32,000 nt of DNA, taken from Hyperthermus butylicus DSM 5456. Lineage in GTDB: Archaea > Thermoproteota > Thermoprotei_A > Sulfolobales > Pyrodictiaceae. Shown piece after piece: positions 312 through 21,437 of this stretch. Position 1 is the first letter of the stretch. Each line of letters opens with the position of its first letter. Where the stretch lies: positions 1,290,001-1,322,000 of the forward strand of contig NC_008818.1 of NCBI RefSeq assembly GCF_000015145.1, read 5' to 3'. A program made the position numbers and the translations under genes. Under the pieces are notes generated by a model that had not been told where the DNA came from, did not search any database, and saw only the letters and a program-made list of their open reading frames with translations.

Positions 312-1073
312 ATGGGGTTTAGAGCCGTCTACCCCGCAGCAACAAAGTTTAAGTATATAATCCAGACTATTGCAAAGGTTATGGATGAAATACCATTCAT
401 TGTTGCGCAAGACGGTCTAGACGTAAGAACGCTAACACCTGACAAGACGACAATGATTATACTAAGGCTTCCCGTTACAGCCTTCGAAGAGTACCAGTTA
501 GACGAGGATAAGAAGACATTCATAGTGCTAGCTGACGAGCTTAACAAGGTTGCTAAGCGTGGTACGCGAAATGATATTGTTGAGCTGAAGCTTGACGAGG
601 AGCATCGTAGACTTGAGGTTAACTTCATAGATAAAAAGACTAATGTTGTACGTAGCTTCTATGTATCTCTTCGTGAGGGTACTGTTGAAGAGCTTGCTGA
701 ACCGCAGGTGGAGCTAACGGTTACAGCGAAAATGATGGCTGACGACTTTAAGAATGTTATAAATGATGCAAAGATAGTAAGCGACGAAGTCGAGTTTGCG
801 GCGTACGAGGATAGAATAGAAGTTTATGCTGAGTCGGCTCAGAAGAAGTATATGGGTGTACTCAAGGTTGGCATGCCACTTATAACGTTAAATGTTGAAG
901 GCGGTACCCCGATACGTGCTAAGTACTCGATAGACTTGCTGAAAGCGGCTGTTAAGGCAACAACGGCTGCTAATACCGTAACACTGGAATATGGTGAGGC
1001 ATTGCCGATGAGACTAAGCTTTGACCTGCCCGGCGGCGGGCTGTTAATATACTGGATATCGCCCAGAGTCTAG
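312..1073 (+). CDS. pcn: DNA polymerase sliding clamp (PCNA homologue)
   Basis: 253 aa, the typical PCNA length. It shows the two-domain repeat pattern, and its N-terminus (FRAVYPAATKFKYIIQTIAKVMDEIPFIVAQDGLDVRTL) and C-terminal PMRLSF...GGLLIYWISPR segment are typical of crenarchaeal PCNA subunits. Confidence 0.88.
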   Translation: MGFRAVYPAATKFKYIIQTIAKVMDEIPFIVAQDGLDVRTLTPDKTTMIILRLPVTAFEEYQLDEDKKTFIVLADELNKVAKRGTRNDIVELKLDEEHRRLEVNFIDKKTNVVRSFYVSLREGTVEELAEPQVELTVTAKMMADDFKNVINDAKIVSDEVEFAAYEDRIEVYAESAQKKYMGVLKVGMPLITLNVEGGTPIRAKYSIDLLKAAVKATTAANTVTLEYGEALPMRLSFDLPGGGLLIYWISPRV

Positions 1074-1315
1074 CCTCCCTCAAGCTTTCTCAGAAGTTCC
1101 TCTAAGGCCCTCCTAGCTTCCTCAAGCTTAGGCTGGGGCTTGGCTGCAGGCTGTACATGTCTAAGCGTGGGGAACCATGCAGGCCTAGGACATATGCTCC
1201 GCTCGGGGCATGCAAGGCAACAGTATGGACATATAATTCTCTCTGGATGTAGCCAGCACTGCCTGGTTGGGCGGTGTCTTCCACAGATGCTACAGCGCTC
1301 CCAGTAAATGCTCAT
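1070..1315 (-). CDS. Small Cys-rich putative metal-binding protein with a C-terminal coiled-coil tail (hypothetical)
   Basis: The ORF is 1070-1426, but I prefer the internal ATG at 1315 (MSIYWERCSICGRH...). There are 8 Cys in about 45 aa (CSIC, CPYCC, C-x6-C), followed by KLEEARRALEELLRKLE. Its stop overlaps the PCNA stop by 4 nt, convergently. Confidence 0.45.
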   Translation of the reverse strand: MSIYWERCSICGRHRPTRQCWLHPERIICPYCCLACPERSICPRPAWFPTLRHVQPAAKPQPKLEEARRALEELLRKLEGG

Positions 1316-1529
1316 GACTGGAAGCCCAGCCTTACACTTAACAATATAGGAACGATATAAAGGGTTGAGGACTAGCCTAGATTTACGGCTGACCGATGAG
1401 AGTGCAGTAATCGCGGCGGGGCACAATACTCGAGGTAAGCCCCGTTTTGTAGGCTGCCTCGAGGGATGATGCCGTGGCCAAAAATTAAAGAGTTTAAGTC
1501 CAAGGAACTAGGAGCAACAGTTAGAATGG

Positions 1530-1969: not shown

Positions 1970-2236
1970 CTACTTTTTCCTTGCTCGGCGTCGCTTCTCG
2001 AGAGATGGTATTGCTATCGACTGTAGCATTGTGATGGCTTCTTCAGTTCTATATTCTCCCTTAGCGAGCTTCTCTATTATTTCCGTTCTTGCGACCATAG
2101 CTTCTAGAAGAGCGGCATTTACATCTATGTCTACAGTAACGACTTCCTCTTCAGCCTCCTCTTCAGCTGTTGTTATTGTTACTTCCCCTTCCTCTATGGG
2201 TTCTGTCACAAACTCCTCCTCCGACATAGAAGCCAC
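1970..2236 (-). CDS. Small acidic-N/basic-C helical protein; possible RNA polymerase subunit Rpo13
   Basis: 88 aa. The N-terminus is very acidic (EEEFVTEPIEEGE...AEEEAEEE), the centre is helical (LLEAMVARTEIIEKLAKGEYRTEEAITML), and the tail is basic (KRRRARKK). An AGGTGG SD lies 7 nt upstream of the ATG. The architecture matches my memory of Sulfolobus Rpo13. The antisense ORF 1965-2243 is low-complexity Ser-rich and was rejected. Confidence 0.4.
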   Translation of the reverse strand: MASMSEEEFVTEPIEEGEVTITTAEEEAEEEVVTVDIDVNAALLEAMVARTEIIEKLAKGEYRTEEAITMLQSIAIPSLEKRRRARKK

Positions 2237-2305: not shown

Positions 2306-4231
2306 CTAATCGCGGGTAAGATCTTCTACGTCTATCCTTACAAGAAGTGGTGTTCTAATTTCAGGATCACGTATGATAGCATAGCCTGGCTTGATTATAT
2401 GCAGTGTTAGCTCTAGAGCAGCTCGGTGTTCCTCGTTTACTTCAACTGCAAGACTTTGTGCAAGATACTTTACTACTTTGGGCTCATCATGCCTCAGTAC
2501 TATTCGAAGCAGCGTGTTTGCAAGGATCATTTCGTCTAGTTCATTGGGTTGTTGCGTGATTATGAGTAGGGCTACGCCGTATTTTCTCAATTCTGCTGCA
2601 TAGTTTCCCACTATGCTGCCAGCAACATCTCTTGATGCAAATATGTGTGCCTCATCTATCACTATTAGGAAGTCAAGCTTGTCTGATTGACCCCGCTGCT
2701 TGAAATACGTATATAGGCGTCTTAGAAGTGTATTTACTGTAAGTACTTGTTGCACTGTGGAGGGTGTCCCTGATAAATCAATTATCGTTACGTGACCTGG
2801 CCTCAGCATCTCTCGGGGGTTAATCGTTCTACCGCTAAAGAGGCTCAGTTCGAGACTGCGTATATGCATTAGCAGTCTTAGGCCACGCTCGTCGTTTCGT
2901 GCTATTCTCGCGAGAATTTGTGTTAAGTCCCTAAGTGTTGGTGGCTCCCTATTCCAGGTTGTAGGGTCTTCAAGCATGATTCCCTTAGCTTCATAGGCTA
3001 GTCTAAGTGCTTCCTCGAGGAGTTCTGCTTGTAAGGGGCCAAGCCTAAACAGCTTCCTAAATAGCTCTACGAGTTCTACAATACGCTCCGATGGGTTAAA
3101 CCCCATATGATCAAGGGGGTTTATTGATATCTTGCTTACATCGAGGTGTATTAGTGGTATTCTATCTGATAGTTTTGCTTTGTACTCGCCATGAGGATCT
3201 ATTACCACTACGGCAAGGTCATTGTGTGTTTCTATTGCAGCCATTATAATTCTTGACGCTAGTGTAGTTTTGCCCGAGCCCGTTACTCCTGTCACCAATG
3301 CATGTATAGGTCTTGAGAGTAATGGCTTGTAGGGTATCGGCTTACGTAGCCTTTCCCACCAGTAGATATAGCCAGCGCCTATATGGCCTTCGATTCTATA
3401 TTTTCTCCTTGGCAGCTTAGCTAGGTATGCTAGCGCATACCCTATAGGTTCGGCTCTTCTGGCTTCCAGTGTGCGTGCAGCCTCTAGCTCTTCCAGATTT
3501 AGTGCTGCTATTAGCGCAAGTACTGTATAAGGGGCTATAGGTGTCGTTACGCCTGCTAGTAGTACTTCTAGCGGTAGTATAGCCATCTTGTCTGTTTCGT
3601 GTGCTCCGGCGTTTGCTGAAAGGGCAATGAGCACAAGTGGGGTTACAGCCAATACTGTGGTATCGTAGAATATAGGTGTCCGTGATGTTGCGTAGATTAC
3701 TTTCAGTGTTGCATATAGTGGTAGTGTATAGGCCGTTGTAAGATATAGTACTTGGTGGGGATTCTTGCATAGGCTATCTCTCAGATTATGTTTTGACAGT
3801 TTTTCCATGAACTCATCAACATATACTCCCCTGAAGTATCTTACCCCAAAGAAGGCTAGGAGTCCAAGATTGATTAACGCTGCTGTACTAGTTAGCGCCG
3901 CGGCAAATACTACTTCAAGGGAGAGTTCGGGCTGAATTTCCCTACCTATAAGCGGTGTCACTGGGTATAGTAGTAGTTGCATGCTAAGGTCTCCTAGTGT
4001 CTCAAGGGCAAATACTATGCTACTTACGGCTAGGTATATGAGAGCTATGGCTGACACTACTGCTGAACTTGTTGTTAGCGGTACTATTACGGCTGCTACT
4101 GCGATTGGTATTTGTAAGGGATAGCCTAAGGCTAACACTAGTGCCAGTGTTATGGCTACAGCTGCTAGCGATGCTAATAACCTGGTATCCAGTACAGCTA
4201 CCCTGGCGGTAATTGGGCCGTATCGTAGCAA
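2306..4231 (-). CDS. Membrane-anchored HerA/FtsK-superfamily (DUF87-like) P-loop ATPase
   Basis: 641 aa. The N-terminal ~250 aa is strongly hydrophobic with multiple predicted TM helices. Walker A is GVTGSGKTT (3266-3289, minus) and Walker B is FLIVIDEAHIF. The HerA-like segment ALLIITQQPNELDEMILANTLLRIVLR is present. The start is TTG at 4231 and is uncertain. Confidence 0.8.
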   Translation of the reverse strand: MLRYGPITARVAVLDTRLLASLAAVAITLALVLALGYPLQIPIAVAAVIVPLTTSSAVVSAIALIYLAVSSIVFALETLGDLSMQLLLYPVTPLIGREIQPELSLEVVFAAALTSTAALINLGLLAFFGVRYFRGVYVDEFMEKLSKHNLRDSLCKNPHQVLYLTTAYTLPLYATLKVIYATSRTPIFYDTTVLAVTPLVLIALSANAGAHETDKMAILPLEVLLAGVTTPIAPYTVLALIAALNLEELEAARTLEARRAEPIGYALAYLAKLPRRKYRIEGHIGAGYIYWWERLRKPIPYKPLLSRPIHALVTGVTGSGKTTLASRIIMAAIETHNDLAVVVIDPHGEYKAKLSDRIPLIHLDVSKISINPLDHMGFNPSERIVELVELFRKLFRLGPLQAELLEEALRLAYEAKGIMLEDPTTWNREPPTLRDLTQILARIARNDERGLRLLMHIRSLELSLFSGRTINPREMLRPGHVTIIDLSGTPSTVQQVLTVNTLLRRLYTYFKQRGQSDKLDFLIVIDEAHIFASRDVAGSIVGNYAAELRKYGVALLIITQQPNELDEMILANTLLRIVLRHDEPKVVKYLAQSLAVEVNEEHRAALELTLHIIKPGYAIIRDPEIRTPLLVRIDVEDLTRD

Positions 4232-4256
4232 GGATAGCTAAACCTCGTGCGAGGCT

Positions 4257-7133
4257 GTGGAGGGCTTGCCCAGGGGTTTTGGCCAGACCAGTGTACAGGG
4301 CGCGTTTAGGCTACTGCACCCCGTGCTTAGAGCGGTACTCCCTAGGTACGGGTATATAAGGCCGACAGAGATCCAGGAGAAGGCTATACCGCTCATACTT
4401 CGTGGGAACCATGTACTTATTGTTGCTCCTACAGGTAGTGGTAAGACTGAGGCTGCACTCCTCCCTGCTATGAGTTCCATCCTGCCTATGCGCGGGTTTA
4501 CCGGGAAGATATATGTGGTTTACATTACGCCTCTCCGTAGCTTAAACCGTGACATCTTTGCGAGAATGAAATCGCTCGCTTCAAGTGTTGGACTTAGGCT
4601 TGAAGTACGGCATGGTGATAGTACGGAGCTCGAGAAGAGGAGATTTCTCGAGAATCCGCCGCACATAATGATTACTACGCCTGAATCATTCTATTTCCTG
4701 CTTAGCGTTGAGAAGTTTAGGGAGGCGATAAGCGAGCTTAAGTACGTTATAGTTGATGAGGTACACGAACTCGTTGGGGACAAGAGAGGTGCTGAGCTGA
4801 GCCTAGCGCTTGAACGTGCTATATCACTCTATGTTAAGGGTAAGGTACAACTTGTAGGGCTTTCTGCAACTGTTGCCGAGCCTGAGCTTGTTGTCCGTAA
4901 ACTCTTTGGCTCTAGGTATGTTCGCATTGTTGAGGCTAGTATGGCAAGAAAGTATAATGTAGGAGTGGTTTTGCCTAGCAGGGACAATACTGTTAATGGA
5001 CTCGAACTCTCGGAGTTTAACGAAGAGCTTTACGAGGATACAATTGATCGTATTGCGTATATAGCGAATGTTATACGTGAGAAAGGATCGGTCATAGTAT
5101 TCACTAATACGCGTGACACGGCTGAGCTTATAGGCGCTCTCCTAAAGAAGGTTCTAGGCGAGAATAGTATTGAAGTGCATCATGGGAGCCTTAGCAGGGA
5201 ACACAGACTGTCCATAGAGGAAAGGTTTCGCAAAGGCGAGATAGCGGCTCTAGTTGCTACTTCTAGTCTCGAACTAGGCATAGACATCGGTCATGTTGGC
5301 TATGTTGTACAATACCTATCACCTAGGCAGGTTGTTAAACTCGTTCAGCGTGTTGGCCGTGCGCGTCATCGCGCTGGGGAGGCTGCGGCGGGTGTTGTTG
5401 TAGCTTCGCGTAATCTTTTCGACGTATTAGAGTCTGCAGTTATAGCTGCCAGAACTAGTAGAGGTAACCTTGAAAAGCTTAAGCCTCCGCATGCGCCGCT
5501 TGATGCCCTTGTGCACCAGGTTGCTGGTACCGTCATAGAAAACCCTGGTATAGACATCGGCAAGCTATACCTTCTAGTGACGAGGAGCGGATTCTATGAG
5601 GGCCTAGATTTTGACGAGTTTATGGCAGTACTCTCCTACATGGAGCATGCTGGGATAATCCGCATACGTGACGGCAAGCTCTATCCGGGGAGAAAGTGTA
5701 TGAGCTATTACTTCAACTCAACAATGATAACGGAAAGCATTCAGTATCCAGTATATGATGTGGTTAGCGGTAAGAGGATAGGACTACTTGATGAAGAGTT
5801 TGTGGCTTCGCTCGATGTTGGCGAGAAGTTTGTGCTCGCAGGAAGAGTTTGGGAGGTTGTAGGCTTTGACGAAAACGGGGTTCGTGTTAAGCCTTCTAGC
5901 GAGGATAGACTCATACCCCCCGCATGGGAGGGCGATCTCATACCTGTAGAGCATAACGTTGCTAGAGAGGTTGCTAGTATTCTCCGTAGATTCGGAGAGG
6001 GGCACACGGAAGTTCTGGACATGTACCCTCTTAGCGATACGGCACGCCGCTACGTTGGTGAAAAGCTCCTACAGGCTATGCGTGAACTAGGATTTCTACC
6101 GCACGATAGAAGGATACTTGTAGAACACTATGGTGATACTTATGTTGTCTATGTTTTCCTTGGCAGTAGGGGTAACAAGTCGTTAGAATACCTCCTAGCC
6201 TACTACATATCGCAAATTAAGGGTTACAACGTATTATCGGCAAGTACACCTTACGCGATTGTGCTTAAGCTTCCAGAACGCAGTGAACCAGGACTCGTAG
6301 AGATGGTTATCAAGAGGCTAGCAGAGCTACCGCCCAGCACATTAGAGGAAATGTATGTTGAAGCCGTAAAGAAGAGCAGGCTATACAGCTGGATACTATA
6401 CCGTGTAGCTCAGCGTGCTGGTGCTCTCCCTGCATCAAGGAGGGCACGTGACCCCTCAATGCTAAAGAGGGTCGTAGCTCAACTCGCCAACACGATACTT
6501 GGTGTTGAAGCCCTAAGAGAATTCGAGAATAGGAAAGGCAATCTAGAAGTTGTCAAGGCTCTGCTTCGAGATGTCGGGAAGGGTTATGTTCTAATAAGCA
6601 CCGTGTCAAGGCGTAATCCTTCACCGTTGACGGAAGACATTATCTCCGAGGCACTTTTTAGCGATAGGGTTGTAAGAACCCAGATGCCAGCAACACTTGT
6701 TGCAGAAGCCGTTAAGAGGCGTATCAAAGCGAGACAGGTTATACTCATATGTCTGGTCTGTGGCTACAAGTGGCAGCGTAGGGTATCCGAGCTGCCTCAA
6801 GAGATAAAGTGTCCAAATTGTTCATCAAAACTAGTCTACGTTACAACCGTTGAGGAAAAAGCTAGAGATGCCAGCATGCTAGCTATGAAGCGTAAACGTG
6901 TTGGACTATCGCGAAGCGAGAATAAGAGGATGCGCGAGTACATCGAGGTTGCAAATCTAGTAATGGACTATGGCAGGTATGCTGTAGAGGCGTTGGTTGC
7001 TCGTGGTGTAGGTGTTTCAACGGCGAGGCGTGTATTGCAAAAACTTGTATTTAGCGAGGATGCCTTCTATAAGGCTCTTGTAGAGGCTGAAGCAAAGTAT
7101 TACAAGTATGCGTATAAGCTTAGGAAGAAATAG
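4257..7133 (+). CDS. lhr: Lhr-type ATP-dependent DExH-box helicase (superfamily 2) with a C-terminal zinc ribbon
   Basis: 958 aa. Q-motif and motif I read PTEIQEKAIP...VAPTGSGKTEA (Walker A at 4425-4448). Motif II is DEVHE (4755-4766), followed by SAT, then TSSLELGIDIG and QRVGRARH. The C-terminus carries CLVCGYKW...CPNCSS. The GTG start is only 25 nt from the divergent ATPase start, so one or both starts may be internal. Confidence 0.85.
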   Translation: MEGLPRGFGQTSVQGAFRLLHPVLRAVLPRYGYIRPTEIQEKAIPLILRGNHVLIVAPTGSGKTEAALLPAMSSILPMRGFTGKIYVVYITPLRSLNRDIFARMKSLASSVGLRLEVRHGDSTELEKRRFLENPPHIMITTPESFYFLLSVEKFREAISELKYVIVDEVHELVGDKRGAELSLALERAISLYVKGKVQLVGLSATVAEPELVVRKLFGSRYVRIVEASMARKYNVGVVLPSRDNTVNGLELSEFNEELYEDTIDRIAYIANVIREKGSVIVFTNTRDTAELIGALLKKVLGENSIEVHHGSLSREHRLSIEERFRKGEIAALVATSSLELGIDIGHVGYVVQYLSPRQVVKLVQRVGRARHRAGEAAAGVVVASRNLFDVLESAVIAARTSRGNLEKLKPPHAPLDALVHQVAGTVIENPGIDIGKLYLLVTRSGFYEGLDFDEFMAVLSYMEHAGIIRIRDGKLYPGRKCMSYYFNSTMITESIQYPVYDVVSGKRIGLLDEEFVASLDVGEKFVLAGRVWEVVGFDENGVRVKPSSEDRLIPPAWEGDLIPVEHNVAREVASILRRFGEGHTEVLDMYPLSDTARRYVGEKLLQAMRELGFLPHDRRILVEHYGDTYVVYVFLGSRGNKSLEYLLAYYISQIKGYNVLSASTPYAIVLKLPERSEPGLVEMVIKRLAELPPSTLEEMYVEAVKKSRLYSWILYRVAQRAGALPASRRARDPSMLKRVVAQLANTILGVEALREFENRKGNLEVVKALLRDVGKGYVLISTVSRRNPSPLTEDIISEALFSDRVVRTQMPATLVAEAVKRRIKARQVILICLVCGYKWQRRVSELPQEIKCPNCSSKLVYVTTVEEKARDASMLAMKRKRVGLSRSENKRMREYIEVANLVMDYGRYAVEALVARGVGVSTARRVLQKLVFSEDAFYKALVEAEAKYYKYAYKLRKK

Positions 7134-7203
7134 GCGAGTGTTAGTTTCAGCTATGTCTGTGGCGGTTAGGCGTTTAGATGGCTCGGGAATAGTAGGGTAA
7201 GGA

Positions 7204-7467
7204 ATGGCGGACATAACGGAATTCATAAACATGTTGACCATTAGGATAGTGAGCATTGCTTGGGGCTTGTTCCTCCTAGCATGGAGTATCGGCTGGCTAC
7301 TCAAGGGCGCACCGATCCCGTTTGCACGGCTCAAACGGACAGGACAAGACCTCGTAGAGGATGCAGTATGGGCTGCCTTTTGGCTTGCTGTGGGCTCCTC
7401 AATATTTGCACTAATATCCTACGTAGTTAGCAATGTCGCTCCAAACCCTACCGTTCCACAGCCCTAG
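7204..7467 (+). CDS. Small 2-TM membrane protein (CedA1-like position)
   Basis: 87 aa with two hydrophobic helices (~aa 12-33 and 55-76). It is the first gene of a tightly packed four-gene operon. It shares the motif P-[IL]-P-x2-RLK[RK]-x4-L-[VI]-[EQ]-D-[AS]-[VI]-WAA with the N-terminus of the next gene. Confidence 0.55.
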   Translation: MADITEFINMLTIRIVSIAWGLFLLAWSIGWLLKGAPIPFARLKRTGQDLVEDAVWAAFWLAVGSSIFALISYVVSNVAPNPTVPQP

Positions 7468-7476: not shown

Positions 7477-8925
7477 TTGATGATGACAGAGCCCAGTCTG
7501 ACAATGTTAGAGCCCATAGAGTTTCTAGCTATAGCTTCTCAGCTCGCAGTCCTAACTTACTATCTTGGCGTATTAATATATGCTCTGCCACTGCCAATCT
7601 ATAGGCTGAAAAAGTGGGCACCAATACTTATACAAGACTCGATATGGGCTGCCATATTAATATTCACGTACTCGTTACTACTAAGCTTCTCAGATAGCCT
7701 GGCAGGCTATAGCGGTATTAGTCTAGAATCCCTCGTGGCCTACATGCAGCTCGTAATCGCAATAGTTATGTCAGTAAACTTTATAGCAAGAGCTTTTATT
7801 ACTTCACTCTCAATGCTACCTGTTAGCCTACACCACGTAGCGAGCGTCATCCTCCTACCAATCCACATGTTCCAATACGGGATAATCCTATCCTCAACCA
7901 TGGTAATGATATTGGCTCTAATCCTTATTGGTGCCAAGGCTAAGCTTGCAGCACTAGGGATAACACTTATAGCAATGCCCTTCAGAATCGGTAGAAATGC
8001 AGGAGCATCAATACTCGCATTCGTACTAGTAGCCAATGTTATGCTGCCATTTCTACCTTATTGGATTGGTCTTATACTATCTAGTATTGGTCTAGCATAT
8101 GATGATATAGCAACTTACAATTCTACGATGTATGTAAACATGTGGGGCACCATATCGGACCAGTATGGGGGCTATCCAGCTGGCGGCGTTATACTATTCA
8201 TGAAGCCCGATGACCCTGATACAAGGTATTGGTTTAAAGTGCATAACGATGGAACATACTACATAAATAGACCATTCAAATACATAAGGGCTGGAGACTA
8301 TATAGTCTACATGGAGTATCTTGGGTACCTAGTTCACCTAATTCCAACCTACGTCAAGTTGCCTGATAACGCCTCTCTAACTTATAGGCTTTCAACCGCA
8401 GAGTATGAGCTACATTTTCGTGCAGCCGAGAACTATGTATTTTTACGTCCTCACGGTGTGTTAATACCAGCATCATGCAAAATTGATGGCTTCGAGAGAT
8501 ACGTTAATGGTGTAAAGCTGGTATGTTTGCCCACGAATAGCATTTTACAGTTATATCTTGCCTATCCAGAGCAGTGTAGTGTAGACCTAGAGTCTAATGC
8601 AAGTATGACGCTTACATCTGTAGAGTTAGTACCTTGGTATGGAATTCTGGTGGTTAAGAAAGAGTATAGAGCTAGTGTAGACGAGTCTACAAGGCTCGAA
8701 ATCAAAGCTAATGTGGTTTGTAGAGGTGCTGTACCAGAACTTCAGGTTGAAGAAGGGGTAGCAGAGCCCAAGAAAAGTGCACTTGTAGAGCTTTTGACGC
8801 TAATAACGTTCTTTATAGCATATCCTGTTGCTGTATTCTCGTATTTAACAGTCATGTCGATGGTTACGCTTGCAGTTGCAAGACTATTGGGTGCACTTTC
8901 ACCAAGGATTATATTTGATTACTAA
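7477..8925 (+). CDS. Polytopic membrane protein with a beta-rich extracytoplasmic domain and a C-terminal TM anchor (CedA-like position)
   Basis: 482 aa. About 6 hydrophobic helices lie in aa 15-215. A soluble region (~aa 215-440) carries N-x-S/T sequons (NST, NAS, NAS), and a hydrophobic C-terminal anchor follows. ATG codons at 7480 and 7483 follow the TTG, with a GGTGG SD just upstream. Confidence 0.55.
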   Translation: MMMTEPSLTMLEPIEFLAIASQLAVLTYYLGVLIYALPLPIYRLKKWAPILIQDSIWAAILIFTYSLLLSFSDSLAGYSGISLESLVAYMQLVIAIVMSVNFIARAFITSLSMLPVSLHHVASVILLPIHMFQYGIILSSTMVMILALILIGAKAKLAALGITLIAMPFRIGRNAGASILAFVLVANVMLPFLPYWIGLILSSIGLAYDDIATYNSTMYVNMWGTISDQYGGYPAGGVILFMKPDDPDTRYWFKVHNDGTYYINRPFKYIRAGDYIVYMEYLGYLVHLIPTYVKLPDNASLTYRLSTAEYELHFRAAENYVFLRPHGVLIPASCKIDGFERYVNGVKLVCLPTNSILQLYLAYPEQCSVDLESNASMTLTSVELVPWYGILVVKKEYRASVDESTRLEIKANVVCRGAVPELQVEEGVAEPKKSALVELLTLITFFIAYPVAVFSYLTVMSMVTLAVARLLGALSPRIIFDY

Positions 8926-8930: not shown

Positions 8931-9119
8931 ATGGTGATGCGTATGCGTATTGAGCTAAAACTCGATATCAAGACATCAACAATAATAGCCTTCGTTATTG
9001 CTATTTACGGGTTTATAGTTGGTATACTTTCCGACAATACTGTCCTCCAAGCAATATCTACTGTCAATGCCATAATGCTTGCGTTACTCCTTATAAGAAT
9101 TGTAAGAGGTGAAGTCTAG
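8931..9119 (+). CDS. Small 2-TM membrane protein (CedA2-like position)
   Basis: 62 aa (58 aa if the start is ATG 8943, which is preceded by GGTGAT). It has two hydrophobic helices. Its stop TAG (9117-9119) directly abuts the ATG of the downstream ATPase. Confidence 0.45.
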   Translation: MVMRMRIELKLDIKTSTIIAFVIAIYGFIVGILSDNTVLQAISTVNAIMLALLLIRIVRGEV

Positions 9120-10460
9120 ATGGATCCGGTCTCGCTCATCGTAGTTGCTGCTGGGGCTACAGCTATACTAGTAAACATGCTCAACAGCCGAGGCCTCATA
9201 TCATTGGGAGTGGGATTTACGAGAAAACTATCCATGCACAACAATAGTCATTGCGTGGGTAGCAGATCCGAGTGCCTGGTTGGTATAGCTGTTACTGGAA
9301 CCGAGTGCATAATGTCTATCTTTATGCGCGGTGTCTTGGAGAAGGTGATGTCTCTAGAGAATATTTGTGGTGTGATAGTCCTTGGCCGCAAAGTAGATTA
9401 TAATGCTGCTACCAGGTTACTAGAATCAAAGCTAATAATGTACCAGGTTGAGCTTGAGAGAAATCCAGCCAATACACGTGCAAAGAGAATGCTTGAGCTC
9501 CTAGAAGCTATTAGATCTGAAATAAACAAGTATAGGGATCCGGTGAACCTGCAACTCGTATTCCTCGTCTGCAAGTCGCATAGTGGTGCAGAGATAGCAG
9601 CTGTGCTTAAGCCACTAAAGTCAATGTTACAGCCATATCGCTGCAAAATATCCCTAACCAGCATATCACTTGGGGGAAATTTTCCAAGACGTGGAGGGAC
9701 AGTATTATCTGGCAGTAAGGCTCTGAGGGAACTTGGCAGAGTAGCCTTACCACTTAGTATTTTAGAGTTTGCACGTGAATCGCAGCTATCAATACCTATA
9801 GGTGTTGACCTACTTGCAGGTGGCTTCCCAATATTTCTCCCAATCCACGACGAGTATGGCGCTAGACACACGCTCGTAGTGGGTCCATCTGGTCGAGGCA
9901 AGACATATCTACTTGGAAGAATTGTAGCACTAGTACTAGCGTTGCTTCCGCATCGCGTAGTGGTGGTTGACCCGAAGGGAGACCTAGCTGGCCTCATAGA
10001 CTCTTTTTGTGGTTGCAGTGAAGTGGTAGAGGTCATTGATGATAGCGATGAAGAATACTTGTCAAGAATAGTACATGACAAAGTCAGAGAGCTACTTGAG
10101 CGCAGTCGTTACGCGGTGCTGGTTGTTGATGAAGCTTGGAGACTCGCTGGATCCCATGCACTAAACGTAGCTCTTCGCGAGGGTAGAAGCAGGGGGTTAG
10201 CAGTTATCATGGCTTCGCAGCAGCCTGGAGACTTTACGACAACACACTGGGCAAATACTAGCAATGTAATAGTATTTGGTTCAAAGGATAGAAGCTATAT
10301 CAGCCTAGTAGCGAGGTACAGCGGTATAGAGCCTAGGTCGCTAGAACACCTTACACACCTAGATATCGGCGAGGCATTGATAAGGTATAGCAATACGAGT
10401 ATCGCAATACCCTTCCGGGTTCTTGAACCACCACTGATAACAGTTAAGAGGCCTCCCTAG
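9120..10460 (+). CDS. VirB4/HerA-like P-loop ATPase with an N-terminal TM helix (CedB-like)
   Basis: 446 aa with a hydrophobic N-terminus (LIVVAAGATAILV). Walker A is GPSGRGKT (9882-9905). Walker B is LVVDEAWRL, the DEAW signature typical of VirB4/TrbE-type ATPases, followed by GLAVIMASQQPGDF. It is translationally coupled to the preceding membrane genes. Confidence 0.65.
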   Translation: MDPVSLIVVAAGATAILVNMLNSRGLISLGVGFTRKLSMHNNSHCVGSRSECLVGIAVTGTECIMSIFMRGVLEKVMSLENICGVIVLGRKVDYNAATRLLESKLIMYQVELERNPANTRAKRMLELLEAIRSEINKYRDPVNLQLVFLVCKSHSGAEIAAVLKPLKSMLQPYRCKISLTSISLGGNFPRRGGTVLSGSKALRELGRVALPLSILEFARESQLSIPIGVDLLAGGFPIFLPIHDEYGARHTLVVGPSGRGKTYLLGRIVALVLALLPHRVVVVDPKGDLAGLIDSFCGCSEVVEVIDDSDEEYLSRIVHDKVRELLERSRYAVLVVDEAWRLAGSHALNVALREGRSRGLAVIMASQQPGDFTTTHWANTSNVIVFGSKDRSYISLVARYSGIEPRSLEHLTHLDIGEALIRYSNTSIAIPFRVLEPPLITVKRPP

Positions 10461-10494: not shown

Positions 10495-11211
10495 ATGGGT
10501 AAGCGGCTAATAGTACAGCGTAGAGGTAAGGGCTCTCCACTATACAGAAGCCGGCCATGGCTGCACCCGGCCCCAGCAAGGTATCCGCCACTAACACCTG
10601 TAACGCTACGCGGCAGAGTCGTAGAACTAGTCCACGACCCTGGTAGATGGGTTCCACTAGCACATATAGTGCTAGAAAACGGGGATGAATTCTACATCCC
10701 AGCAGCTGAGGGCATGTATGTTGGCCAGATAATAGAGATAGGTCCTGATGCCAGGCCGGTGAATGGTAACATACTACCGGTAGGCAAGATACCGGAGGGT
10801 ACCCAGGTATATAATATTGAAATAAGGCCTGGTGATGGCGGAAAGCTCGTCAGAGCCTATGGCACCTACGCAATAATCCTTGGGCGCAGCGGAAACAAGA
10901 CGATAATACAACTGCCAAGCGGTAAGGTAAAGGAAGTACCAAACGATGCAAGAGCGACAATAGGCATAGTGGCAGGTGCAGGTAGGCTCGAAAAGCCGCT
11001 GCTCAAGGCTGGTGCAGCTTACTACAAGTGGAGTGCCAAGCCACACGTGTGGCCACGCGTACGCGGCGTAGCAATGAACGCTGTCAACCACCCACACGGT
11101 GGTGGCAGCCACCAGAGCCCAAGCTTCCCAACAACGGTATCCCGTAATGCGCCACCAGGCCGCAAGGTAGGCCACATAGCAGCACGCTCAACGGGCAGGA
11201 GGAAGAGGTAA
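10495..11211 (+). CDS. rpl2p: 50S ribosomal protein uL2 (L2P)
   Basis: 238 aa starting [15 protein letters not shown], with the conserved ...[14 protein letters not shown]... motif. An AGGTGG SD lies upstream. Confidence 0.97.
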
Positions 11212-11257
11212 TAATCGTATATTAGCACCCAGCATAGAGGGGGATGGAGGGGGTTCG

Positions 11258-11725
11258 ATGGTCCAGACACAGCTAAGGCTCGATGAGGAAATGAAGAAGT
11301 GGCTTGAAACACTGCCACCAGAGTGGAAGAAGTTCCGCTACCGTGGCTACACGCTAGAAGAACTACTGGCAATGCCCATGGATCAGTTCATAAAGCTCCT
11401 ACCAGCAAGGCAGCGCCGCAGCTTGCTAAGAGGTCTAACAGACGCGCAGCGCCGCCTCCTCTGGAAGATTAGGAAGGCAAGGCAGAAGATGCTCCAGGGC
11501 AAGAAGGTTGTAGTGAAGACGCATGTCAGGGACATGATTATACTTCCAGAAATGGTTGGTCTTACAATAGCCGTCTACAATGGCAAAGAGTTCATACCAG
11601 TAAAGATAACCCCAGAAATGATAGGCCACTATCTAGGCGAGTTCAGTCCAACATGCAAGCAGGTACAGCACGGCGAGCCAGGCCTAAAGGCTACAAGGAG
11701 CACGCTGCACGTAGCCCTCAAGTAG
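11258..11725 (+). CDS. rps19p: 30S ribosomal protein uS19 (S19P)
   Basis: 155 aa containing ...[32 protein letters not shown]..., characteristic of S19. It directly follows uL2, as in the canonical order. Confidence 0.95.
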
Positions 11726-13085: not shown

Positions 13086-14087
13086 GTGGAAAGGGATGTT
13101 GAGAAGGAGTTACTCTACAGGCTGGGGCTCGGCGAGAGTAGCGGGAGGGAGTCTTCTGCTGTTGATATTGAGGGGAAGGTCAGGCAGATCTATGGCCAGC
13201 TGGTAGCAGAGTATAGTGGCAAGCCTGTTCGAAACCCCTATGAGATACAGAGGCTTCTCCGCGATCGCTACAAGCTGCTCGTGAGCGAGAACTTGGTAAA
13301 GCTTGTTGTAGCAGCATTTCTAGCAGGGAGGCCGGTCCTTTTCGAAGGGCCCCCAGGTACTGGTAAGACGGAGATAGCTGAAGCCATACTAACACTGTGG
13401 GCGGGAAAACAAGCATTCATAATAACGTGTAGCGAGAACTACGACGAGTATAGGGTTATAGGAGACTTCCACCCACTCATGGCACTAAGATATGGATTTA
13501 ACGAGGCGAGTTTTATTCCAAGACCCTTGCTTGCAGCCCTAATACTTGATGCTGGTGTTCTAGTAGACGAGATAAGACGTAGTAGCGAGGAGCTTCAGAA
13601 CCTCCTACTAGACATCATTGATAAGCGGCGTATAATAGTGCCGGAGATACGTAGAGTGTTTAGGGCTAGAGGTATCGGGTTCCAGATGATATTTACCAGC
13701 AACCCCGAGGACTTTGCTCAGAATGAGCTGAGCGATGCCTTCCTAAGGCGTGTTGTAAGAATACCGTTTAGATACCCATCACCCGAGGAGGAGGCGGAAA
13801 TAGTGAGGCTGAGATATGACGTAGAAGTGGAACTCGAACCAAGCTTACTCAAGGCCATGATAATGACCGTAAACATTCTACGCGAAAAGGCAGCCTATAA
13901 GCCAGGTCCCTCGGATACTGTTCTCTGGGCAAGAATTGCTGGTAGGCTCGCAAAGCTACGTGGTGCGAATAAGGTAGAGATGCGGGACGTTGTTGAGGCA
14001 GCAGTAATAACGTTGTATAAGCGTGTAGGGGAGGAGGACATAGTTGATGAAGCACTCGAAAAAGTTTTTGGGCAAAAACCAGGGTGA
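13086..14087 (+). CDS. MoxR/CoxD-like AAA+ ATPase
   Basis: 333 aa. Walker A is GPPGTGKT (13347-13370), Walker B is VLVDEIRRS (MoxR DEINR-like), and sensor-1 is FTSNP. GTG start with an upstream GAGGT SD. Confidence 0.85.
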   Translation: MERDVEKELLYRLGLGESSGRESSAVDIEGKVRQIYGQLVAEYSGKPVRNPYEIQRLLRDRYKLLVSENLVKLVVAAFLAGRPVLFEGPPGTGKTEIAEAILTLWAGKQAFIITCSENYDEYRVIGDFHPLMALRYGFNEASFIPRPLLAALILDAGVLVDEIRRSSEELQNLLLDIIDKRRIIVPEIRRVFRARGIGFQMIFTSNPEDFAQNELSDAFLRRVVRIPFRYPSPEEEAEIVRLRYDVEVELEPSLLKAMIMTVNILREKAAYKPGPSDTVLWARIAGRLAKLRGANKVEMRDVVEAAVITLYKRVGEEDIVDEALEKVFGQKPG

Positions 14088-16056
14088 AGAAGCTGACTAC
14101 AAAGCACTGTCTCTCGCTGTAGCGGAGGCTGCACGCCGGGCAGGTGTACGAGTCTCAACCTCCGAGGTTGTCGACGCAGCTAGGCTGCTAGCACTCTACG
14201 CTGCCATCTCGTCGAAGCCTCTATCACTCGAAGACTATGTAGCAGTATTCACATCAGTGTATGCTAAGAGAGGTGAAGACGAGCAGGTAGTTGTAGAGGC
14301 CGTAAAGAGGGTAATTATCGGTCCTGAGGCTGGGAGAGCTAGTGTAGAGCAGCGGATCAAAAGGGATCTTGAAGCTCTAGGGCTAGATTACGGTGATAAA
14401 ATATCAAGACACAAGCTTTCAAGTCTAAAGAAAAGCGATAGGGCGCGCACGGCTTATGCAAGGCTAAAACTCCTAGGGATAATAAGGCGTAGTCGCCATG
14501 GCGAGTATGTTGTCTCGCAGGAGAAGGCCAAGAGGATAATGGGTGAGATAGCCAGGCGATACGGAGATATAGATAATGCGCTCGCAGAAGCTATAGCAAA
14601 CAGTATAGCTAGAAACACGAGTCTCGCCAGCCTTCTGGGGTCAGAGCTACTCAAATACCTCGACCTTGAGAGTCTGAATCTCGCGACATTAGCGAAGCTA
14701 TACAGTAATCTACACAGGGAGAAGTGGCTGCAGAAGGTAATAACGGGCATAATTAGCCGGAAAATTGCTGAGGGAGAAACACCGCCAAACCCTGAGAGGA
14801 TATACGACATCTTAAGACGTGAAGGTATGGATAGTCGTGTTCTAGCAGGTTTGCTTCGTAGTAATCCACGCCTTGCAGCTAGAGCTGCAAAAGACTATGG
14901 CTTCCAGACAGTCCTAGATATAGCGTCGTCGATTGCTAGCTACGACTCCCAGAGAGCAGCAGAAATACTTGCACATGCTAGCGGGCTTAAGCAGAGCCAG
15001 AAAACATTCCTACGCAACTACATCACGAGGCTTGGAGTAACCTATGCGCTCGAGCTTGCAAAGCATACTGGTGTAGCTCAGCTTCTAGCAAGAGCTGTCC
15101 AGGTAAGGGAGAGTTTGATTCGAAGCCTCTCAAGGCCCGAGGAAGCCCCAGCTCATCTTGACATGGCTCTTGCAGAGTACGAAAAGCTAGTATCTGAATA
15201 CAATTCCGCAAGCAGCGAGATACCAGACCGTCTACGCAATATTATAGAGGGGGAGATTAGGAGCCTTGCTAGCCTAGTACATGCTGCAAGCACAGGCAAC
15301 ACATATGCTCTTCTTAAGGGGTTAACGCGGCAGCTACCAGTTTGGCAGGCCCTACAATTCCTAACAGATGTTGCTTCAGCAAGTAGTGACCCGAAAACAA
15401 AGAGGTATGCGTTAATGCTAGCTCTACTAACGTGGAAGAGGGCAGTATCGACGACGGGACCAAGGCTCTCTAGGAGGCGGAAATATACGGTTACCCGTGG
15501 AAGACTCGATGCTAGAAAGGCTATCTACGGGATACTCCGCTTTGACCCCTACACTCCAATATACCGTAGGAGGGTTAGGACAGCACGCTACGTCGTGGTA
15601 CTAGACAAGAGTGGTAGCATGCGTGAATATTCACTAACAGCGCTATTAGCCTCAGCTTCTCTCGCGCCAGCCATAACAAGGCTAGTCCTCTTCGACAGTG
15701 AGGTAAGGGTAATCGATAGGCTTGAACAAGCATCTGTCCCGAAAATAATATCCCTGCTCTTTAAGACAAGCTTTGAAGGCTATACAGACGTCGTGCGCGC
15801 TCTCGAAGAGTCAACCCGTGGGCTGGCACCCTCAAAACTGGTGGTGATAAGCGACTTGCATCAAACGGTGCCATCCAGAAAATCTGTTGACGAGGTACTC
15901 CGAGGTATGAGAACGTCTGGATGGCGTATAGCGGTAGTAGCTCCGCCAACGTTGGATCCGCGGTTGGCAAGGAGGATAACTGGTATTGTAAAATTATACA
16001 CGGTGTCAAAACCAGCTGATGTAGCTCGTGTTATAAGGAGGCTAATAGCTGCTTAG
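14047..16056 (+). CDS. CoxE-like von Willebrand factor A (VWA) domain protein with a ~500-aa helical N-terminal extension
   Basis: The C-terminal VWA domain has a MIDAS motif in VVVLDKSGSM (DKSGS at 15604-15618), preceded by the Arg-rich CoxE-like segment RRRKYTVTRGRLDARKAIY. The gene overlaps the MoxR gene by 41-44 nt (ATG 14047 or TTG 14044), which suggests coupling. Confidence 0.8.
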   Translation: MKHSKKFLGKNQGEEADYKALSLAVAEAARRAGVRVSTSEVVDAARLLALYAAISSKPLSLEDYVAVFTSVYAKRGEDEQVVVEAVKRVIIGPEAGRASVEQRIKRDLEALGLDYGDKISRHKLSSLKKSDRARTAYARLKLLGIIRRSRHGEYVVSQEKAKRIMGEIARRYGDIDNALAEAIANSIARNTSLASLLGSELLKYLDLESLNLATLAKLYSNLHREKWLQKVITGIISRKIAEGETPPNPERIYDILRREGMDSRVLAGLLRSNPRLAARAAKDYGFQTVLDIASSIASYDSQRAAEILAHASGLKQSQKTFLRNYITRLGVTYALELAKHTGVAQLLARAVQVRESLIRSLSRPEEAPAHLDMALAEYEKLVSEYNSASSEIPDRLRNIIEGEIRSLASLVHAASTGNTYALLKGLTRQLPVWQALQFLTDVASASSDPKTKRYALMLALLTWKRAVSTTGPRLSRRRKYTVTRGRLDARKAIYGILRFDPYTPIYRRRVRTARYVVVLDKSGSMREYSLTALLASASLAPAITRLVLFDSEVRVIDRLEQASVPKIISLLFKTSFEGYTDVVRALEESTRGLAPSKLVVISDLHQTVPSRKSVDEVLRGMRTSGWRIAVVAPPTLDPRLARRITGIVKLYTVSKPADVARVIRRLIAA

Positions 16057-18310: not shown

Positions 18311-19354
18311 GTGGGTGCACGAAAAAAGCATGCGCCTCGACGTGGAAGCTTAGGACTCCGGCCGCGTAAGCGTGCCTCGAGGCTAGTGCCTAGAGTGAAG
18401 AGTTGGCCGGAGGTTCAGAGCGAGAACCCGCTGCCGCTTGCATTCCTGGCATACAAGGTTGGCATGACACATGTATATGTAATAGATGATGAGCCGGGCT
18501 CAATAACCCATGGTAGAGAAATATTCATGCCCGTCACAGTACTCGAAGCGCCACCAATGGTTGTCACAGCGGTAAGAGTCTACGGCTATGATCCCAACAT
18601 AGGCCTATACACGCTCAGTGAGGCATGGGCTCAGCCCGAGACGCTCGTGGAAAAGTACAACCTTGACATATACCGTGTAGTTCCAAGGCTACGCTTCCCA
18701 GACCCGGACAAGGCTGTTAAGAAGCTTGAGGGCCTACTAGACAAGGTCTATGATGTCCGCATCATAGCAGCTACACAGCCTAGGCTCGTTGGCGGTCTCA
18801 GCAAGAAGAAGCCAGACCTACTAGAGATAAAGATCGGTGGCGGCAGCAGCATAGAGGACCGCTTCAACTATGCAGTTAAGCTGCTAGGCTCGGAGCTAAA
18901 GGTCTCCGATGTATTCCGCGAGGGGCAGTTTGTAGATGTTATAGCTGTGACTAAGGGTAAGGGCTTCCAGGGTGTAATCAAGAGGTTTGGTGTCAAGGAG
19001 CTGCCGAGATGGCACAAGCACAGGAAGGGTAGCAGGAGCGGCCCCGGTACAAGAGGTCCAGCAACATCATTCTCGTGGAGCGAGGTGCCACAGCCAGGCC
19101 AGATGGGCTTCCACCGCAGGACAGAGTACAACAAGCGCATACTAAAGATAGGCGACAACGGCCTCGAAATCACCCCAGCGGGCGGCTTCCTACACTACGG
19201 CATTGTTAGGAGCACCTACATACTGCTAGCAGGCAGTATACCGGGTACACCTAAGAGGCCAATAGTGCTGAGGCACCCGGTAAGGCCACGCTGGATGCCG
19301 GAGGCACCACCAAAGATAACATACATAAGCCTTGCAAGCAAGCAGGGCAACTAG
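18311..19354 (+). CDS. rpl3p: 50S ribosomal protein uL3 (L3P)
   Basis: 347 aa containing FLAYKVGMTHV and VTKGKGFQGVIKRFGV. GTG start is preceded by GGTGAT (18299-18304). Confidence 0.95.
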   Translation: MGARKKHAPRRGSLGLRPRKRASRLVPRVKSWPEVQSENPLPLAFLAYKVGMTHVYVIDDEPGSITHGREIFMPVTVLEAPPMVVTAVRVYGYDPNIGLYTLSEAWAQPETLVEKYNLDIYRVVPRLRFPDPDKAVKKLEGLLDKVYDVRIIAATQPRLVGGLSKKKPDLLEIKIGGGSSIEDRFNYAVKLLGSELKVSDVFREGQFVDVIAVTKGKGFQGVIKRFGVKELPRWHKHRKGSRSGPGTRGPATSFSWSEVPQPGQMGFHRRTEYNKRILKIGDNGLEITPAGGFLHYGIVRSTYILLAGSIPGTPKRPIVLRHPVRPRWMPEAPPKITYISLASKQGN

Positions 19355-19422
19355 CCTAGGGCGCACCAATCGGTGAACGTGTGGGCCAGGAGGTGTAGGC
19401 GTTGGCGTCGAAGATAGGCTCA

Positions 19423-20235
19423 ATGATATTCCTGCTTGCGACACAGCCGCCTCGCGTACCAGTATACAACCTAGAGGGCAGTGTAGCTGAGGAGGTGCAG
19501 CTGCCCAGAGTCTTCGGGCTCCCCGTGCGCATAGACCTCATAAGGCGTGCATTCCTTTCGGAGTTCACAGCAAGACTCCAGCCAAAGGGCAGGGATCCAC
19601 TAGCTGGTAAGAGGACTACTGCTAGAAGCTTCGGTGTAGGCCTGGGTATTGCTAGGGTTCCGAGAATACCCGGCCTAGGCAGAGCAGCATTCATAAACTC
19701 GGCAGTTGGCGGTCATTTGGCGCACCCGCCAAGGGTCGAGAAGAAGATACATGAGGAGATAAACAAGAAGGAGAAGAAGCTTGCAACAGCTTCAGCGCTA
19801 GCTGCAACTGCAAGAAAGGAGTTCGTAGAGAAGCGTGGCCACAGGTTTCCGGCACAGACAGTCCCCGTAATAGTAGTTGACGAAGTCGAAACCAGCATTA
19901 CGAGGGTCAAGGAGGCGAAACTGCTGCTAGAAAAGCTGGGCGTCTGGAGCGACATTGAGAGGGCGAAGGAGAGGACAAGGATACGTGCTGGTAAGGGTAA
20001 GAGGCGTGGCAGGAGATACATAACGCCCAAGAGCATCCTCTTCATAGTATCGAACCACAACTCTTCCTTCGCGAGGGCCGTAGCAGGGCTACCCGGCGTA
20101 GATGTAGCTGAGCCATGGAATGTTAATGTGCTACAGCTAGCACCCGGTGGAGTGCCTGGCAGGCTCACAGTGATAACCCGCAGTGCCCTCGAAGAGCTAG
20201 GCAAGAGGTTTGACTCGATACTCCTTCAGATCTAA
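19423..20235 (+). CDS. rpl4p: 50S ribosomal protein uL4 (L4P)
   Basis: Contains VPVYNLEGSVAEEVQLP..., RAGKGKRRGRRY and the L4 family core. The ORF opens at TTG 19402, and I chose ATG 19423 as the likely start. Confidence 0.92.
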   Translation: MIFLLATQPPRVPVYNLEGSVAEEVQLPRVFGLPVRIDLIRRAFLSEFTARLQPKGRDPLAGKRTTARSFGVGLGIARVPRIPGLGRAAFINSAVGGHLAHPPRVEKKIHEEINKKEKKLATASALAATARKEFVEKRGHRFPAQTVPVIVVDEVETSITRVKEAKLLLEKLGVWSDIERAKERTRIRAGKGKRRGRRYITPKSILFIVSNHNSSFARAVAGLPGVDVAEPWNVNVLQLAPGGVPGRLTVITRSALEELGKRFDSILLQI

Positions 20236-20265
20236 CACTCTTAGCCGGTAGAGGGGTGACGAAGT

Positions 20266-20532
20266 ATGACACGTACGCCCTGGGACATAATCATAAGGCC
20301 CGTGCAGAGCGAAAAAGCGCTCAAGCTAATAGAGGAGCAGAACACGCTAACGTTCATAGTTGACAGAAAGGCAACCAAGCACGACATTAAGAGAGCAGTT
20401 GAGGAGGCGTTTGGCGTAAAGGTTGTCAAGGTTAACACTCTGATAACGCCGCGCGGCGAAAAGAAGGCCTATGTAAAGCTTGCAAAAGAGTACAGCGCGG
20501 CAGATGTAGCAGCAAGGCTTGGCCTACTCTAA
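20266..20532 (+). CDS. rpl23p: 50S ribosomal protein uL23 (L23P)
   Basis: 88 aa reading [45 protein letters not shown].... Confidence 0.95.
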
Positions 20533-20593
20533 GCATCCTAGCCTTGTTTCATCAAACTTATTTTGGCTAGTGGGACACTATATCACTCATTCT

Positions 20594-20880: not shown

Positions 20881-20888
20881 ATTTTATT
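20881..20888 (+). promoter_or_regulatory. TATA-like box ATTTTATT, candidate internal promoter for the uL22-led operon segment
   Basis: This is the only A/T-rich box in a GC-rich spacer, about 80 nt upstream of the uL22 ATG, which itself has a GGTGG SD. The position is inferred and not verified. Confidence 0.25.
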
Positions 20889-21435: not shown

Positions 21436-21437
21436 CC

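Follow-up and report, generated by a model that had tools for sequence, protein, structure and literature searches.

A HerA-type ATPase with a predicted membrane anchor, encoded head to head with an aLhr1-type helicase beside the ced operon of Hyperthermus butylicus

The Ced system is, to our knowledge, the only machine known to import chromosomal DNA between archaeal cells, and it is a domesticated relative of bacterial conjugation systems. The locus described here lies on a 32,000-nucleotide (nt) stretch of the chromosome of Hyperthermus butylicus DSM 5456 (contig NC_008818.1, positions 1,290,001 to 1,322,000; the whole stretch is called the window below), in which a HerA-type ATPase with a predicted membrane anchor, here named TM-HerA, is encoded head to head with an aLhr1-type helicase next to a ced operon. 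The list of Ced parts is growing, CedD, CedE, and UpsC having been added in 2025. CedD, a membrane-bound ATPase of the HerA-FtsK superfamily that has been called VirD4-like (PMC11868833, PMC11823120), is essential for DNA import, and homologues have been reported in Desulfurococcales and Acidilobales. For H. butylicus, Table S1 of Recalde et al. (bioRxiv supplement) lists CedA as Hbut_1291, CedB as Hbut_1292, and CedD as Hbut_0386; the CedD genes of that table (Hbut_0386, Pyrfu_0100, Tagg_1287, APE_2093, and others) lie far from ced in every listed Desulfurococcales genome. An ATPase for donor-side DNA export has yet to be named in the Ced literature.

Helicases of the Lhr type translocate 3'-5', and aLhr1 is a helicase of repair and recombination. 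The S. acidocaldarius protein, SacaLhr1 (Saci_0814), can take Holliday junctions apart in vitro, and in that species deletion of alhr1 lowers the frequency of homologous recombination 5-fold and renders cells sensitive to helix-distorting damage. The aLhr1 group is defined by a C-terminal zinc-finger-like motif together with a helix-turn-helix (PMC8301817) and is encoded by almost every TACK genome and by the majority of euryarchaeal ones, with or without Ced (PMC8301817, PMC10003305); no conserved neighbour of its gene had been reported (PMC8301817). HerA and the HerA-like defence ATPases (Sir2-HerA, DUF4297-HerA, DndH/DptH), which prove to be the nearest motors to TM-HerA by both profile and fold, are hexameric DNA translocases.

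An earlier note on this DNA, made from its letters, had described a 641-amino-acid (aa) protein in which transmembrane (TM) segments are joined to a HerA/DUF87 ATPase, and a divergently transcribed 958-aa helicase with Lhr motifs and a Cys ribbon, the two starts being 25 nt apart and the helicase ending 70 nt before a Ced-like operon; every one of these features was recovered from the sequence (Table 1). The TTG start of TM-HerA is the only start codon that retains the conserved first TM helix. Residues 1-257 are hydrophobic and are modelled by AlphaFold2 (AF2) as helices (residues 6-257) at a pLDDT of 50-70; mean column identity in this domain is 26%, with M1 as the sole invariant residue, and the domain is probably an anchor rather than a conserved channel. 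A relationship to the CedA/VirB6 channel was considered and rejected (hhalign probability to CedA 0.2%). The Pfam DUF87/HerA central domain (PF01935) matches TM-HerA at 69 bits (E 8e-19, cut-off 23.2), and no C-terminal extension follows the motor. Invariant in the 63 family members compared are G315, G318, G320, K321, D345, H347, E349, E527, E547, R549, K550, Q560, and N572; by its catalytic motifs, all of them invariant in these homologues, the motor is intact.

The limits of the family were drawn by several searches. An exhaustive phmmer search of 1.84 billion representative proteins returned 3,757 matches, the best 150 of which were inspected for architecture, and about 90 of these 150 are proteins of 560-660 aa in which a region of roughly 250 aa with 4-7 TM helices precedes the motor. 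Word-indexed searches with the full-length protein or an alignment gave 8 and 19 matches only, owing to the hydrophobic N-terminus; the family profile covers the motor domain and was built from 13 members. On the loci examined, members score 376-499 bits on this profile and the next proteins no more than 133 bits, and in a database of 5.8 billion proteins a series of scores that starts at 498 bits ends at 248, the next score being 195. Named members come from Hyperthermus, Pyrofollis japonicus, and metagenome-assembled genomes labelled Pyrodictium, Thermosphaera, Desulfurococcaceae, Desulfurococcales, Thermoprotei, or "Sulfolobales archaeon", and there is no Sulfolobaceae isolate among the members found in the genome scan and the 5.8-billion-protein database. 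As judged from these scores, the TM-HerA family is sharply delimited and confined to Desulfurococcales-type crenarchaea. By position, TM-HerA is probably Hbut_1289 and the helicase Hbut_1290; the literature search turned up no paper naming Hbut_1289, Hbut_1290, or Hbut_0386 in its text, and both the family and its pairing with aLhr1 appear to be undescribed in the literature searched.

The ATPase had been taken for an FtsK/VirD4-type, coupling-protein-like pump, an assignment that holds for its layout and fails for its descent. Against the PDB, the family profile scores 124 bits on the DptH/DndH C-terminal domain, about 100 on HerA, 76 on VirB4, 58 on STIV B204, 52 on EccC, 43 on FtsK (over a 60-aa stretch), and 27 on TrwB (1e9r; P-loop only). 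The top Foldseek matches of the AF2 model are the DndH C-terminal domain, S. solfataricus HerA, T. kodakarensis HerA, and VirB4 (E 1e-16 to 1e-12), and coupling proteins are absent from the top 50. Pfam points the same way, with FtsK_SpoIIIE (PF01580) at 19.9 bits under its cut-off of 24, T4SS-DNA_transf (PF02534) at 12.3 bits (cut-off 20.1), and PF10412 at 26.4 bits over the P-loop region only (aa 309-375). On this evidence from profiles, fold, and Pfam scores, TM-HerA belongs by descent to the HerA/VirB4 clade of the FtsK-HerA superfamily and not to FtsK/VirD4, and its resemblance to the latter is one of layout, a membrane anchor plus a ring motor. VirD4/TraG/TrwB and FtsK/SpoIIIE offer an analogy in that they too place a ring ATPase from this superfamily behind an N-terminal membrane anchor, but TM-HerA lacks both the all-alpha domain of the former and the KOPS-reading gamma domain of the latter, and falls into another clade. 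Nor does it pass as an equivalog of HerA: the NCBIfam HerA models NF040819 and NF040937 give 63 and 61 bits (cut-offs 970 and 800), the N-terminus is a membrane domain, and the neighbours are aLhr1 and Rpo13. Unlike HerA, it has a polytopic anchor instead of a HAS-barrel and lacks a NurA, Mre11/Rad50, or effector partner. CedB and VirB4 belong to the same superfamily, VirB4 (4ag5/4ag6) being among the best structural matches, but their N-terminal domain is absent from TM-HerA, and CedB, encoded 5 kb away in the same block, is a separate clade: the CedB model NF041017 yields 46.5 bits on TM-HerA (cut-off 700), BLASTP against the CedB of the window gives 31 bits, and CedB forms the outgroup of the motor tree.

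The helicase opposite TM-HerA carries the Pfam domains DEAD (PF00270), Helicase_C (PF00271), WH_Lhr (PF19306), and DEAD_assoc (PF08494), matches NCBIfam PRK13767 at 449 bits, and has a DEVH box at aa 167. It is built of a superfamily 2 helicase core, a winged-helix domain, Lhr domain 4, a C-terminal Cys4 ribbon, and a helical tail, and thus has, down to the Cys4 motif, the full architecture of aLhr1 as known from SacaLhr1 (Saci_0814) and SiRe_1605; by its domains it is an aLhr1. The helicase had been proposed to process incoming DNA, and its Lhr type was borne out (as aLhr1), but the type is near-ubiquitous in archaea regardless of Ced. The spacer between the two genes holds a single AT-rich element (ATAGCTAAA/TTTAGCTAT at 4234-4242), spacers at all homologous loci with the head-to-head arrangement are short (25-183 nt), and a TATA-like CTTATACG lies between both starts in three of them (L014, L021, and L030; such labels are used below to tell loci apart). 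This suggests that the 25-nt spacer may be a minimal bidirectional core promoter shared by the pair. The start of the helicase gene is ambiguous, GTG 4257 giving the 25-nt spacer and TTG 4266 being the alternative; the latter would fall about 25-30 nt from the AT-rich element, as in leaderless transcripts.

Fifteen distinct lineages with a family member were examined by genome scan and contig look-ups, and 13 are informative, the loci L004 and L084 being cut off. The pair of aLhr1 and TM-HerA is kept in 11 of the 13 (the window, L002/3, L006, L014, L021, L030, L082/83, L085, L086, L087/88, and L093), in departure from the earlier report of no conserved neighbour for aLhr1, which here is paired with TM-HerA throughout one crenarchaeal group; Lhr is missing next to TM-HerA in L001 and L005. 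In 8 of the 13, a ced operon is found no more than 5 kb away, directly after Lhr in the window, L002/3, L082/83, and L085, after an inserted PAPS-reductase gene in L006, L087/88, and L093, and in L001, where Lhr is missing, with TM-HerA abutting cedA1 directly, head to head. The linkage with the Ced-like operon recurs in these 8 lineages at TM-HerA identities of only 28-38%. On the side away from Lhr the examined lineages share the same series of (Rpo13), a 130-aa open reading frame (ORF), PCNA, and a 118-aa ORF (the small ORFs in nearly all), and beyond ced there follow always L2-S19 or an RNA-methyltransferase-L3 pair. In the TM-HerA tree, lineages with adjacent ced fill one clade and part of a second, and a third clade is without ced, a distribution that fits a single ancestral block of PCNA...TM-HerA<>aLhr1-ced-ribosomal genes followed by losses. 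The most robust unit is the pair itself, which has survived insertions on both flanks, among them, in L086, the ParA and DUF72 genes that separate TM-HerA from PCNA. Of the extended DNA-translocation module of 2.3-10.5 kb that had been proposed, the recurrence of TM-HerA<>Lhr-ced stands (8 of 13), but the conserved unit is the pair, and five lineages have no ced genes within 10 kb; that the combination is not part of the described Ced system was confirmed.

Identity to the H. butylicus proteins across these lineages is 28-38% for TM-HerA (motor half only), 25-37% for CedA, 29-33% for CedB, and 33-50% for Lhr, compared with 28-76% for PCNA and 77-89% for L2. Judged from these values, TM-HerA evolves at a rate like that of CedA and CedB, unlike its housekeeping neighbours.

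The regulation of the neighbouring ced operon was approached through its promoter. ANTTTC is the DNA-damage response element (DDRE) of Sulfolobales, bound by Orc1-2 (PMC6061795). The DDRE-like TAGTTTCAGC upstream of cedA1 is followed by a TATA-like TTTAGAT at 7173-7179, and the same 10 letters recur in a Sulfolobales-type tfb3 promoter on the metagenome contig L090. Of 7 independent lineages, 6 have ANTTTC upstream of cedA1, at a background of 0.087 per 110 nt (P for at least 5 of 6, 2.8e-5), which suggests that the damage regulon of ced extends to Desulfurococcales. Two small genes of the operon, cedA1 and the 62-aa ORF, match the '+/-' (unannotated) entries for H. butylicus in the published Ced table, and a small ORF of 53-81 aa occupies the position of the latter in every related ced operon. 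In two loci cedB is called in two pieces (L085 3733-5029, 291+160 aa; L088 1631-3311, 172+383 aa), a split that may reflect a frameshift, a pseudogene, or an error of assembly.

The reading that we tentatively favour is that TM-HerA is a membrane-tethered HerA-clade DNA ring translocase that cooperates with aLhr1 and serves the Ced system encoded beside it as an accessory motor. TM-HerA would form hexamers at the cytoplasmic side of the membrane, thread DNA using ATP, and act as the third motor of the adjacent DNA-exchange apparatus, relaying DNA between the CedA/CedB channel and the recombination machinery of the cytoplasm, where aLhr1 would be at work. In favour of this we count the presence of ced no further than 5 kb away in 8 of the 13 informative lineages, the retention of the pair in 11 of them, the intact motor, the match of its fold to the DNA-translocating HerA, VirB4, and DndH, the CedA/CedB-like evolutionary rate, the detection of the family only in a Ced-bearing group, the Desulfurococcales, and, by analogy, the recombination role of aLhr1; there is also a precedent, as the Ced system of Sulfolobales requires a second HerA-type ATPase, CedD, and TedD is encoded within the ted locus. 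A functional link to Ced is a plausible hypothesis, the grounds for it being inherited synteny and rate. A membrane-anchored HerA-type motor family beside ced, paired with a recombination helicase, is a concrete candidate for work on Ced.

Several observations weigh against such a link. Even with family-specific hidden Markov models of the Ced proteins, no ced was found within 10 kb in L005, L014, L021, L030, and L086, and a single ancestral arrangement means that the adjacency to ced counts as roughly one event. PCNA, Rpo13, and L2/S19 or L3 belong to the same block, with their order likewise kept, and inherited gene order explains the adjacency at least as well. Sulfolobaceae run Ced without any detected member of the TM-HerA family; in Sulfolobales, aLhr1 is not beside cedD (SiRe_1605 versus SiRe_1715), and aLhr1, besides being near-universal, does not appear in the list of S. 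islandicus genes with more than 30-fold induction by 4-nitroquinoline 1-oxide. Finally, ANTTTC is absent upstream of TM-HerA and Lhr in the 21 promoter regions (110 nt) listed, 19 of which were counted as independent (P for 0 of 19, 0.18), so that co-regulation of the pair with ced, for which the earlier note had suggested a test, received no positive sign from this motif proxy; the absence is weak evidence, since the genuine and strongly induced cedD on L090 is also without ANTTTC within 130 nt.

A second view is that aLhr1 and TM-HerA work independently of Ced, as a membrane-proximal unit of repair, recombination, or chromosome clearing whose position next to ced was inherited, which we regard as possible if somewhat unlikely. 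The role would be FtsK-like by analogy, the pair is the most stable adjacency (11 of 13 lineages) and persists without ced nearby in L014, L021, L030, and L086, the flank away from Lhr is always informational (Rpo13, the 130-aa ORF, and PCNA), aLhr1 has general repair and recombination phenotypes, and the promoter of the pair is without a DDRE motif. However, an essential housekeeping translocase would not be expected to diverge as fast as TM-HerA, which falls to 28-38% identity between related genera, its N-terminal domain lacks conservation, the pair is broken in L001 and L005 while TM-HerA stays put, and the family is missing from Sulfolobaceae and from other archaea that have aLhr1. Should the link to Ced be wrong, there would still be a new, taxonomically restricted family and a first conserved gene partner for aLhr1.

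A third reading, which we consider unlikely, makes the pair a missing component of the machinery by which Desulfurococcales exchange chromosomal DNA, consisting of a third motor, tethered to the membrane, and a helicase of its own. The helicase would unwind or prepare single-stranded DNA and the motor would feed it through the Ced conduit, either in donor-side export or in the hand-over from the CedA/CedB channel to recombination. It is decidedly unlikely, in turn, that TM-HerA and aLhr1 are functionally related neither to each other nor to Ced, with another substrate or role for the ATPase and a layout that merely reflects a dense genome. Such a view takes strength from the conservation of the whole 12-kb block, PCNA, Rpo13, L2, and S19 included, and from the lack of any co-regulation signal found; against it, the HerA-clade relatives of known function act on DNA, and the pair outlasts rearrangements of its flanks, by a PAPS reductase in L006, L087, and L093 and by ParA and DUF72 in L086.

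The proximity of TM-HerA to CedD calls for separate treatment. CedD (SSO0283 family; Saci_0667/SiRe_1715) is likewise a membrane-bound crenarchaeal ATPase of the HerA clade, and the two share the motor motifs D-P/W-HGEY, EL/IRKY, and ITQ-P. CedD is tied to DNA exchange of the type IV secretion system kind and its role in DNA import has been demonstrated, whereas TM-HerA is tied to it by position only. A genuine cedD was located via a primer for quantitative polymerase chain reaction from the supplement of Wu et al., which matches exactly on two metagenome contigs; on L090 it is a 541-aa ORF (4864-6489) flanked by S17e, a Urm1-like gene, thermosome beta, and TFB3, a neighbourhood as published for cedD, and with 771.7 bits over positions 1-527 of the CedD model this identifies it as the genuine gene. 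This CedD has two TM helices (aa 5-45), then about 185 aa, and then the Walker A motif and motor, in contrast to the 5-7 TM segments and linker of about 50 aa in TM-HerA, the linker standing where CedD has its VirB4-like N-terminal domain (NTD) of about 185 aa.

That the published assignment of Hbut_0386 picks another paralogue, and that TM-HerA is the true Desulfurococcales counterpart of CedD, seems to us highly doubtful. CedD (NF053655) is indeed the best NCBIfam match of TM-HerA, with an alignment that takes in the whole ATPase domain and reaches 82.5 bits (cut-off 600), a score to be read with the caveat that the accepted H. butylicus CedB (74 bits) and CedA (124 bits) likewise fall far under the cut-offs of their own, Sulfolobales-trained models. 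Further points in its favour are that BLASTP of TM-HerA gives 57 bits to the genuine CedD versus 31 to the CedB of the window, that TM-HerA is predicted to be membrane-bound like Sulfolobales CedD, and that it adjoins ced much as the gene for TedD, which sits inside the ted locus, adjoins ted. On the other hand, the match spans model positions 223-526 and leaves 1-222 unmatched, and the same model yields 77-108 bits even on unrelated HerA-likes; the BLASTP alignment, at 23% identity, covers the motor only (310-628 versus 233-532). The genuine CedD scores 118 bits on the TM-HerA profile, amid generic euryarchaeal and bacterial HerA-likes at 104-133. In a neighbour-joining tree of the motors, 66% of 200 bootstraps place CedD as sister of the generic HerA-likes and 7% as sister of TM-HerA; the tree is crude, with one sequence representing CedD, but the phylogeny of the ATPase domain that the earlier note had called for was in this form obtained, with CedB as outgroup and CedD without specific grouping with TM-HerA. 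The NTD of CedD is missing from TM-HerA, and none of the published CedD genes lies next to ced. The simple equation of TM-HerA with CedD was rejected on the basis of the orthologue table (Hbut_0386) together with the BLASTP, profile, and tree comparisons with a verified Sulfolobales CedD. We conclude from these comparisons that TM-HerA is a separate family of the HerA clade and not an orthologue of CedD, Hbut_0386 itself being set apart by the locus table only. The VirD4-like second ATPase of Ced, as described in 2025, is in H. butylicus a different gene (Hbut_0386), and a membrane HerA-like ATPase near ced is not automatically CedD.

An anti-virus defence module of a HerA-type ATPase and an Lhr-like helicase, comparable to Dnd/Dpt, BREX BrxHI, or Shango, is very improbable and was rejected: PADLOC matches the ATPase (HerA 93 bits, DndH 81, mad8 78) and the helicase (BrxHI 309 bits, SngC 302), and the family profile finds its best PDB match in DptH, but domain sharing is all that these matches show, the neighbourhood holds no nuclease, Sir2, or other effector, and the pair is single-copy, vertically inherited, and fixed among housekeeping genes in every lineage. 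An origin from a virus or mobile element was likewise set aside, viral contigs (IMG/VR) holding 2 weak relatives only and plasmids generic DUF87 matches only.

Table 1. Features of the TM-HerA/aLhr1 locus and neighbouring genes (positions within the window).
Feature	Position	Strand	Basis or remark
TM-HerA ATPase ORF	2306..4231	-	641 aa, TTG start; ORF call and translation
N-terminal polytopic membrane domain, aa 1-257	3461..4231	-	Hydropathy, 5-7 TM segments; AF2 helices
Short beta-strand linker, aa 258-305	3317..3460	-	AF2 strands 264-272 and 290-301, pLDDT ~90
HerA/VirB4-type P-loop motor domain, aa 306-641	2309..3316	-	Pfam DUF87; AF2 pLDDT >90
Walker A GVTGSGKT, aa 315-322	3266-3289	-	Motif
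Walker B VIDEAH, aa 524-529	2645-2662	-	Motif
ELRKYG	2576-2593	-	Motif; ITQQP also present after Walker B
Shared intergenic region TM-HerA<>Lhr	4232..4256	.	25 nt, one AT-rich element
aLhr1-type helicase ORF	4257..7133	+	958 aa, GTG start; ORF call and translation
Cys4 ribbon CLVC-x17-CPNC, aa 832-855	6750-6821	+	Motif
DDRE-like TAGTTTCAGC	7142-7151	+	53-62 nt upstream of the cedA1 ATG
cedA1	7204-7467	+	87 aa; NCBIfam CedA1 127.7 bits, cut-off 100; 70-nt gap from the Lhr stop (7133) to the ATG (7204)
cedA	7477-8925	+	N-terminal 200 aa, 124 bits NCBIfam; Hbut_1291
Two-helix ORF	8931-9119	+	62 aa; between cedA and cedB
cedB	9120-10460	+	NCBIfam 74 bits; Hbut_1292
PCNA	312-1073		Block neighbour
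Rpo13	1970-2236	-	Block neighbour

The remainder of the block calls for a few remarks. The two small ORFs on the PCNA side of the window (1070-1426 on the minus strand, 118 aa, and 1530-1922 on the plus strand, 130 aa) are without a Pfam or NCBIfam match. The PAPS-reductase-like gene found between aLhr1 and ced in Desulfurococcaceae-type loci encodes about 640-685 aa on the opposite strand (L006 4113-6144, L087 5169-7100, L093 5159-7108, L086 4932-6989), and in L086 this gene, with Fe-S motifs, stays beside Lhr though ced is gone. In the window, rpl2 and rps19 (10495-11725) directly follow cedB after a gap of 34 nt, detached from the main ribosomal cluster at 18311-31778 (L3 18311, L4 19402, L22 20887, S3 21438, S4e 24081, SecY 30384) by about 6.5 kb of unrelated genes, and the same split is seen in L001, L002, L082, and L085; in the Desulfurococcaceae loci L087 and L093, cedB is followed by the RNA-methyltransferase-L3 pair instead. 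Further along the window, at 13086-16056, the gene for a MoxR-like AAA_5 ATPase (333 aa) runs into the start of that for a VWA/CoxE-like protein of 670 aa, a MoxR-VWA pair of typical layout that is kept also in L001.

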